A stretch of 31,720 nt of DNA, from assembly GCF_003334385.1 (NCBI RefSeq), contig NZ_QOWN01000053.1, one strand, 5' to 3'. The stretch comes from Escherichia coli (GTDB lineage: Bacteria; Pseudomonadota; Gammaproteobacteria; Enterobacterales; Enterobacteriaceae). The translations under genes were made by a program, and so were the position numbers. Positions 28,130 through 28,667 of the stretch are shown here, piece after piece. A model generated the notes under the pieces. The model was not told the DNA's origin, searched no databases, and saw nothing but the letters and a program-made list of their open reading frames with translations. Each line of letters starts with the position of its first letter. Positions within the stretch are counted from its first letter, which is position 1.

Positions 28130-28489
28130 ATGAATGAAACAGAACTGAAGCACATTATCGCCCTGCTTCTGGAAGATGCCAGACAGGTTTATCGACTTAG
28201 CCCAAATTCCGCAACGCAGGAACGCATCCGGATAGCGGAAACAGCACTGAAACAGGACAATGGAAACGGCATATCCAAATTTAGCGCCGCCAGTGAAAAT
28301 GAAGTAATAGAAATAAACAGCAATATCAGCGACAGTTGCGTCGCTTACAGCCACCAAATAATTCGTGTAAGTGCAAGAATAATGGAAGTGATGGCAAGTG
28401 AGCTTGAAAAGAACAACATCAAGCACACTGATTGTTGTTTAAGAACCGTAATGAACGTTATTTATTACTCGATGTTCCGAAGTCGCTAA
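28130..28489 (+). CDS. Early-left protein, function unknown (119 aa)
   Basis: MNETELKHIIALLLEDARQVYRLSPN... with GGAG SD 8 nt upstream. Confidence 0.5.
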   Translation: MNETELKHIIALLLEDARQVYRLSPNSATQERIRIAETALKQDNGNGISKFSAASENEVIEINSNISDSCVAYSHQIIRVSARIMEVMASELEKNNIKHTDCCLRTVMNVIYYSMFRSR

Positions 28490-28667
28490 CAGCGTCGAGT
28501 TTTTCATTAAAAAATGATTCAAATGCATCGTAAAATACGGCAATAGCACCGCCCTTATCTACCGCGGCAGGAACTGCCTTTTGAGGTATATCTTTCTCCG
28601 TAAATTGTGTGTTGTAAGTATCGACAGCCAGCCGCATCAGAAACATCACTTTTTCTTCTTGTGTCAT
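28458..28667 (-). CDS. Opposite-strand small protein, function unknown (69 aa)
   Basis: MTQEEKVMFLMRLAVDTYNTQFTEKDIPQKAV... with AAGGAGA SD 7 nt upstream; 3' end overlaps the convergent 28130-28489 gene by 32 bp. Confidence 0.5.
   Translation of the reverse strand: MTQEEKVMFLMRLAVDTYNTQFTEKDIPQKAVPAAVDKGGAIAVFYDAFESFFNEKLDAVSDFGTSSNK

Follow-up and report, generated by a model that had tools for sequence, protein, structure and literature searches.

A conserved convergent gene pair with overlapping 3' ends in the early-left operon of lambdoid prophages as a candidate excludon

Two small genes of an Escherichia coli prophage run toward each other and share their last bases, and the question raised by this locus is whether such an arrangement has a meaning of its own, as in a regulatory or toxin-antitoxin-like pair, or is simply a tight packing of neighbors. 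The stretch of DNA that was analyzed, called the window below, comprises 31,720 nucleotides of E. coli contig NZ_QOWN01000053.1 (RefSeq assembly GCF_003334385.1). The original prediction, made from the letters of the window, described a plus-strand gene of 119 aa and a minus-strand gene of 69 aa that overlap tail-to-tail by 32 bp, and the coordinates of the open reading frames (ORFs) bear this out:

28130..28489, plus strand: 119-aa gene for a two-module protein of family phrog_2982 (ORF with Shine-Dalgarno sequence; annotated as WP_001005964.1)
28458..28667, minus strand: 69-aa small gene for an acidic two-helix protein of family phrog_2605 (ORF with Shine-Dalgarno sequence; WP_000189938.1)
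28458..28489, both strands: overlap of the two coding sequences at their 3' ends, 32 bp (ORF coordinates)

The plus ORF begins with the ATG at 28130 and ends with a stop codon at 28487-28489, and the minus ORF runs from the ATG at 28667-28665 to a stop codon at 28460-28458. Both are preceded by the good Shine-Dalgarno (SD) sequences that had been claimed for them: GGAG at 28120-28123, six nt 5' of the ATG, for the plus gene, and AGGAG at 28681-28677, nine nt 5' of the ATG, for the small gene. The two genes were also said to lack a terminator between them, and a consensus scan indeed found none at or between the 3' ends; the nearest terminator-like match is a weak 6-bp stem at 28553-28539 on the minus strand, inside the small gene. 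On the plus strand, the same kind of prediction (consensus scan) found no terminator-like site from 28130 to the DicF-like element described below. Since the coding sequences overlap by 32 bp, any complete mRNAs overlap as well, and transcription of either gene must yield RNA that is antisense to the other, just as had been argued.

An ORF of 69 codons is not by itself longer than expected by chance, and the ORF list of the window contains many spurious frames of that kind. The small ORF is regarded as a gene because it is conserved, not because of its length. The N-terminus of its product, MT(Q/H)EEKVMFLMRLAV, is near-invariant among the window, a Qin-like E. coli prophage and Edwardsiella phage EPP-1, and the DNA differences within this stretch lie mostly at third codon positions of the minus frame (GTG/GTA/GTT, CTG/CTT/TTA, CGG/CGC/CGT). 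These third positions are first codon positions of the mirror ORF on the plus strand, and therefore the mirror ORF is not the conserved one. Compared with close relatives by the method of Nei and Gojobori, the small gene has a dN/dS of 0.17-0.39; compared with the Qin-like variant, the value is 0.22-0.33. In the partner domain, as the conserved C-terminal part of the plus gene is called below, pN/pS is 0.24-0.27 in unsaturated comparisons between close pairs. Judged by these substitution patterns, both genes are real and are under purifying selection.

The statement that neither protein has a recognizable family proved to be only partly correct. Searches with Pfam, NCBIfam and PADLOC gave no match for either protein or for their alignments, the toxin, antitoxin and defense models included. 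However, PHROG profiles match both proteins over their full length, phrog_2982 in the case of the plus protein (E 2e-76, residues 1-119 of 119) and phrog_2605 in the case of the small protein (E 9e-45, residues 1-69 of 69), and the first 41 residues of the plus protein are homologous to YmfJ of prophage e14. Both PHROG families are without assigned function, RefSeq labels the two products (WP_001005964.1 and WP_000189938.1) as hypothetical proteins in the prophage of E. coli FORC_069, and a literature search on both accessions and on ymfJ found no functional data. Profile searches of PDB sequences returned nothing below E 0.3, and a Foldseek search of the AF2 model against the PDB returned nothing below E 1.9.

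The small protein is acidic and soluble-looking, with two amphipathic helices and no membrane helix (sequence, AF2); the AF2 model of the two helices reaches a pLDDT of up to 95. An exhaustive HMM search with this protein through 1.84 billion representatives retrieved no more than 20 clusters (50 % identity), and a scan of species-representative genomes retrieved only two loci, both in Buttiauxella. A relationship to YmfI was considered and rejected, phrog_2605 being unrelated to ymfI, and the Pfam search gave no match of the small protein to SieB (PF14163). In locus L059, a genuine, separate sieB gene adjoins the pair, in the same orientation.

The plus protein is made of two modules, and its C-terminal module carries a substitution in the window:

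28130..28252, plus strand: N-terminal module (aa 1-41), a homologue of the YmfJ N-terminus from prophage e14 (BLASTP)
28355..28471, plus strand: C-terminal partner domain, aa 76-114, helix-loop(K-P-T)-helix (alignments, AF2)
28424..28426, plus strand: codon 99, CAC (His), which is Pro in the K-P-T loop of every other homologue examined

The N-terminal module is 56 % identical to YmfJ of the E. coli K-12 prophage e14 over 41 aa (BLASTP, E 4e-15). The likeness to YmfJ is confined to residues 1-41, and the C-terminal halves of the two proteins are unrelated; YmfJ itself (e14 b1144) has no Pfam family by Pfam search. Partial PHROG matches to the plus protein span residues 1-42 or 1-71 only, and in locus L048 the YmfJ-like module is encoded as a separate ORF of 50 aa. 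The plus gene is a mosaic, with N-terminal parts that have been swapped and are wholly different between variants (the partners range from 57 to 201 aa); to the eye, the N-termini of the partners in L045, L057, L059 and L067 look YdfC-like. The sole part of the plus gene common to all pair variants is the partner domain, which makes up the last ~45 aa and has the consensus LLxISSExLxVxKSELxxxGIKPTPxNLRxVMxIIxxSLP across variants. This domain also occurs free-standing, in proteins of 57-68 aa, and corresponds to phrog_15476; a word-indexed profile search with it found only 17 proteins, all unnamed. AF2 predicts a helix-loop-helix with the K-P-T motif in the loop (pLDDT 82-94). Position 28425 is the lone base that differs from FORC_069 within 27900-28900, and the difference changes Pro99 to His in this near-invariant loop.

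Is the pair inherited as a unit? Conservation across prophages had been named as a check in the original prediction, and it was found in IMG/VR, in phages and in other contigs. A scan of IMG/VR with the small protein yielded 42 loci, and in 41 of these an opposite-strand ORF of at least 80 aa, the length used as a filter for partners, ends inside the small gene; in the remaining locus (L047) the partner is a protein of 64 aa. The pair is also present in Edwardsiella phage EPP-1, Shigella phage SfII and E. coli O157:H7, and on contigs from Logan, ENA and NCBI that represent eight further clusters of the small protein. The 68-aa partner gene of SfII (L049, 4154-4360, minus strand) is unannotated in the reference genome, and partner genes are likewise uncalled in L055 and L065/L066. 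In all, E. coli, Shigella, Edwardsiella and metagenomic phages yielded about 15 sequence variants of the pair. The orientation is convergent in every pair locus and the overlap is 18-45 bp, with sizes of 18, 21, 23, 24, 27, 29, 32, 33, 39 and 45 bp among the variants:

small protein 69 aa, partner 119 aa, overlap 32 bp
small protein 68 aa, partner 118 aa, overlap 29 bp
small protein 63 aa, partner 201 or 135 aa, overlap 23 bp
small protein 62 aa, partner 171 or 121 aa, overlap 33 bp
small protein 60 aa, partner 158 aa, overlap 27 bp
small protein 58 aa, partner 64 aa, overlap 27 bp
small protein 64 aa, partner 68 aa, overlap 39 bp
small protein 61 aa, partner 195 aa, overlap 18 bp
small protein 58 aa, partner 57 aa, overlap 21 bp
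small protein 57 aa, partner 130 aa, overlap 24 bp
small protein 64 aa, partner 140 aa, overlap 45 bp
small protein 59 aa, partner 62 aa, overlap 27 bp
small protein 58 aa, partner 128 aa, overlap 24 bp

The partner domain stays with the small gene down to 27-47 % protein identity, and the overlap persists while the stop codons shift. Counting the variant of the window alone, about 94 of the 5,426 complete E. coli genomes carry the module, and related variants are found in O157:H7 and O104:H4. That these are real genes, kept together as a unit and in one orientation, is directly established.

Losses and solitary copies add to this picture. Compared with an intact Qin-like prophage, the Qin prophage of K-12 has a clean deletion of 795 bp that corresponds to exactly the two genes (L003:1774-2568). 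The corresponding stretch of K-12 Qin is 2043-2382 of L006, where the leader sequence of the small gene is retained; K-12 keeps the leader hairpins and inverted repeat (see below) without the two genes. By this alignment, what has been described in K-12 as a 'long untranslated region' preceding dicF (PMC5069750) is the deletion scar of the two-gene module. Each gene can also be found by itself. The partner gene is present without the small gene in E. coli 05-3629, and it is intact beside a small gene that is half-deleted in L002 and frameshifted in L005, while L063/L064 carry the small gene without the partner. Two Buttiauxella species (L052, 3501-3680, and L053) retain an intact small gene, together with its promoter motif, that is flanked by an ompW-like gene and trpA and adjoined by a stop-containing remnant of the partner domain; this solitary copy looks like a domestication of the small gene.

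The surroundings of the pair are those of an early operon. The region is 99.9 % identical to a lambdoid prophage located next to ynfG in E. coli FORC_069, and the genes on the plus strand are, in order, a cI-like repressor, an N-like gene (phrog_271), a truncated phrog_2539 gene, the 119-aa gene, kil, a phrog_2016 gene, recE, gam, bet and exo. By its gene order this is an early-left operon of the pL type, and the assignment of the pair to a 'left operon' is borne out by the repressor, N-like gene, kil, recE, gam, bet and exo, which stand in pL order on the plus strand. The 69-aa gene is the only reverse-oriented member. Three neighbors make up the nearer context:

27397..27702, plus strand: N-like antiterminator gene (phrog_271, E 8e-35; PF25694 N_peptide in the syntenic locus L061)
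28893..28942, plus strand: DicF-like sRNA, downstream in the pL direction (Rfam RF00039, 29.2 bits against a gathering score of 48, E 7e-4)
29106..29345, plus strand: kil, encoding an FtsZ inhibitor, the next pL gene (phrog_294, NF008465, annotation)

Because the small gene lies reversed within the operon, transcription into kil must cross it in the antisense direction. The DicF-like sRNA has the terminator stem and tail in common with K-12 dicF, and differs from it in the 5' part (alignment). At Rfam gathering thresholds there was no match near the pair, either in the window or in 15 related loci. Every phage locus shows the same order, with an S24 or HTH/cI repressor, sometimes N and others, the partner, the reverse small gene, a non-coding stretch and further early-left genes; ydfC and dicF/dicB flank the pair in O157:H7 and in intact Qin-like prophages. 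This operon position, too, is directly established. A link of the pair to kil/dicB as such was rejected, since non-E. coli variants carry YfdP, DUF2303, rdgC and other genes downstream.

Several other features of the prophage were noted along the way. A 93-aa ORF at 27711-27992 (plus strand) matches phrog_11941 over its full length (E 4e-45) and is unannotated in the RefSeq record of the identical prophage. The annotated 61-aa gene at 27913-28098 (plus strand) corresponds to the C-terminal ~47 aa of a 237-aa phrog_2539 protein that is intact in L002, L005 and L061, and this truncated gene has the look of a scar left by recombination. At 28944-29138 (plus strand), an STnc100-like element that scores below threshold leads into kil, and two full STnc100 copies are present elsewhere in the prophage (15693-15902 and 16178-16371, both minus strand). 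Adjacent matches to C4 antisense RNA and isrK, above the Rfam thresholds, lie at 20009-20093 and 20119-20196 (both minus strand).

How might a reverse gene within such an operon be expressed? Upstream of the small gene, the following elements were predicted:

28761..28789, minus strand: candidate sigma-70 promoter, -35 CTTTCA, 17 nt, -10 TAAACT (motif prediction)
28705..28725, minus strand: inverted repeat/hairpin TCTCCAC-N7-GTGGAGA in the leader of the small gene (fold prediction)
28677..28703, minus strand: SD (28681-28677) and complementary CTCCT (28703-28699), a predicted SD-sequestering hairpin (MFE and centroid fold)

In the window, the candidate -35 is weaker than in relatives, owing to a deletion of 1 nt, and the candidate promoter is below the threshold of the promoter scan. 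In L003, L012, L039 and L061, the sequence TTTTCA-17-TAAACT is found at the same position, and the motif of the E. coli variants ends about 94 nt short of the ATG. Shared by the non-E. coli variants is an extended -10, TGnTATCTT, that ends 33-34 nt before the ATG, with a -35 of TTTTCA or TTCACC, and the solitary Buttiauxella copies also carry an extended -10 promoter motif. The conservation of these motifs is directly established; because their position is fixed across very divergent sequences, it argues for a predicted promoter that belongs to the small gene.

The inverted repeat and the complementarity that covers the SD recur upstream of all homologues of the small gene, with differing sequences; in the non-E. 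coli variants the equivalent inverted repeat sits in the promoter spacer. These leader repeats could serve as an operator or as an SD-sequestering leader, or they could be hairpins formed by the pL-sense RNA. RNAalifold gave no consensus on the leaders, whose two classes cannot be aligned column for column. An earlier reading of the leader differences as 'compensatory covariation' was withdrawn, RNAalifold having found no consensus and the registers being different.

Taken together, the convergent overlap, the conserved unit, the operon position, the promoter motifs and the K-12 precedents lead to a reading in which our confidence is evenly balanced, namely that the pair is an excludon, or noncontiguous operon, within a pL-type operon, with lytic transcription silencing a small gene that has its own promoter. 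The pair would be a two-gene module within the early-left operon of lambdoid and e14-like prophages of Enterobacterales. Its small gene would form an independent transcription unit facing the pL promoter, through a sigma-70 promoter of its own, and the resulting transcript would run antisense into the conserved domain of the plus gene. In the other direction, pL transcription would be antisense across the whole small gene, because of the overlap and because no termination is predicted before DicF, kil and recE. In the lysogen, pL would be off and the small gene could be expressed; upon induction or infection, N-antiterminated transcription from pL may shut the small gene down by polymerase collision and decay of double-stranded RNA. 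What we infer from the arrangement is the timing of transcription on each strand, the silencing of each gene by the other and any functional tie between their products. Against this reading stand the weakened -35 of the window, and the chance that the leader hairpins and inverted repeat, still present in K-12 where both genes are gone, belong instead to the pL-sense RNA.

Precedents for several of these steps exist. At the equivalent prophage position, ymfI-ymfJ (e14) and sieB-ydaF (Rac) were scored as convergent excludons by RNA-seq of K-12 (PMC12288877). During the late SOS response, the log2FC of ymfJ was 4.8 at the last time point, compared with 2.0 for ymfI, and by its behavior ymfJ is a repressor-controlled, late-SOS gene (PMC11002266). 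The plus gene of the window is proposed to be likewise an early, repressor-controlled gene. A gene with its own promoter that lies antisense to the lytic genes of a prophage is typically an accessory locus expressed in the lysogen (PMC7067206).

The plainest alternative is that unrelated accessory neighbors have come together at a hotspot for reverse insertions, the overlap being compaction without meaning. This would fit e14, where the place behind a YmfJ-type gene is taken by ymfI, a reverse gene with no relation to the small gene, as well as the nearby sieB in the same orientation in L059, the loci in which each gene is found alone, and the failure of AF2 to give a confident complex. It does not readily explain why a domain of ~45 aa stays with the small gene despite full turnover of the remaining plus gene, why the overlap persists while stop codons move, or why the K-12 deletion takes out precisely both genes, and we consider incidental packing unlikely. 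Closer to the original prediction is a toxin-antitoxin-like or poison-antidote pair, in which one product neutralizes the other and antisense RNA adds a layer of control. Co-inheritance is strict in most loci, both proteins are small and helical (AF2), and the convergent 3' overlap resembles that of some type I systems. However, neither protein matches any toxin, antitoxin or defense model, the genes are convergent in every locus and hence not co-transcribed, and the small protein is acidic and soluble-looking without a membrane helix. Each gene also survives without the other: the small gene is intact beside a decayed partner in two Buttiauxella species and stands without a partner in L063/L064, and the partner is intact where the small gene is half-deleted (L002) or frameshifted (L005). 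When the partner domain was joined to the small protein by a GS linker and modeled with AF2, the helices were confident but the window pair reached a pTM of 0.34 and the L047 pair one of 0.37, with only 15-16 rows in the alignment. A protein-protein complex is therefore not supported by the models, a negative result that is weak because the paired alignment is so shallow (15-16 sequences). With the lack of a family match, the solitary copies and these low pTM values, the toxin-antitoxin-like reading did not survive well, and we regard it as very improbable.

Two further alternatives shift the weight to the leader or to the RNA. The partner domain or the small protein might bind the inverted repeat and control the small gene, so that the pair would be an accessory switch beside the main immunity switch. 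The repeat does occupy the same place in all variants, with differing sequences, and in the non-E. coli class this place is the promoter spacer. Against a regulator with its target, searches of Pfam, PDB sequences and folds revealed no likeness to DNA-binding families, and the repeat could equally be an RNA hairpin; such a module seems improbable. Alternatively, RNA could be the main product and the ORF secondary: the transcript that the lysogen makes from the small gene would act in antisense on the early-left transcripts of related phages and exclude them upon superinfection. Since the scan predicts no terminator beyond the small gene, that transcript is expected to reach across the conserved domain, and an antisense RNA of prophage BTP1, STnc6030, gives exclusion of self-like phages (PMC7067206). 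However, the small ORF is under clear purifying selection at the protein level and survives alone in Buttiauxella, and a role for RNA alone is given little credence here.

Even if the excludon reading is right, antisense coupling alone does not explain the constant company of the partner domain. A functional link between the proteins is possible, by analogy with SieB and Esc, as a factor and its antagonist. The small protein might then be an exclusion or host-modulation factor expressed by the prophage and the partner domain its antagonist in the lytic phase, with opposite overlapping strands ensuring mutually exclusive expression. Such an undescribed two-protein switch between lysogeny and lysis would be a protein-plus-antisense analogue of SieB/Esc/sas; we view it as doubtful at present.

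The module joins a short list of reverse genes embedded in prophage early operons, of which sieB and ymfI are the known examples, and it reinterprets the 'long untranslated region' of the much-studied dicBF operon of K-12 as the scar of its deletion. A hypothesis that can be tested and a clear genetic handle are now available for two orphan families, phrog_2605 and phrog_15476 (together with the C-terminus of phrog_2982). The module is carried by prophages of pathogenic E. coli (O104:H4, O157:H7), Shigella and Edwardsiella, and lies next to DicF, DicB or Kil. If the small protein is indeed a factor for exclusion or host modulation that is made in the lysogen, with its antagonist encoded by the early gene, it would represent a new accessory system of lambdoid prophages.

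Comparison with known systems helps to place the pair. It shares with type I and type II toxin-antitoxin systems the two small adjacent genes, the antisense overlap and the mobile element. Unlike type II systems, it has no co-directional bicistronic operon, no toxin or antitoxin domain and no predicted complex, and solitary copies occur; unlike type I systems, both strands encode proteins under purifying selection and there is no hydrophobic membrane toxin. The dicBF operon of Qin (ydfABC-dicF-dicB; PMC5069750) is of the same type and the pair's position in it is the same, but the described operon lacks the pair, K-12 Qin having lost exactly both genes.

The logic of the two-protein switch resembles that of sieB-esc-sas. 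In that system, a phage-encoded antidote, which is an in-frame internal product, allows the phage to escape its own exclusion. In P22 and lambda, the gene concerned is a pL-region gene expressed by the prophage, and an antisense RNA tied to lytic development modulates its expression (summarised in PMC12197685, PMC7067206). The present pair differs in that the small protein has no homology to SieB (PF14163) and no membrane segments, and in that the putative antidote would be a separate gene on the opposite strand rather than an in-frame internal product.

The closest counterparts are the named convergent excludons, or noncontiguous operons, of E. coli K-12, ymfI-ymfJ of e14 and sieB-ydaF of Rac (PMC12288877, PMC7154746). 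Unlike these, the pair has an unrelated reverse gene (phrog_2605) that travels with one particular domain of its forward neighbor, and the overlap extends to the coding sequences themselves. As in both, a reverse gene lies inside the early-left unit of a prophage, convergent with its neighbor and with overlapping 3' ends, and as in ymfI-ymfJ the forward gene begins with the N-terminal module that it has in common with YmfJ.
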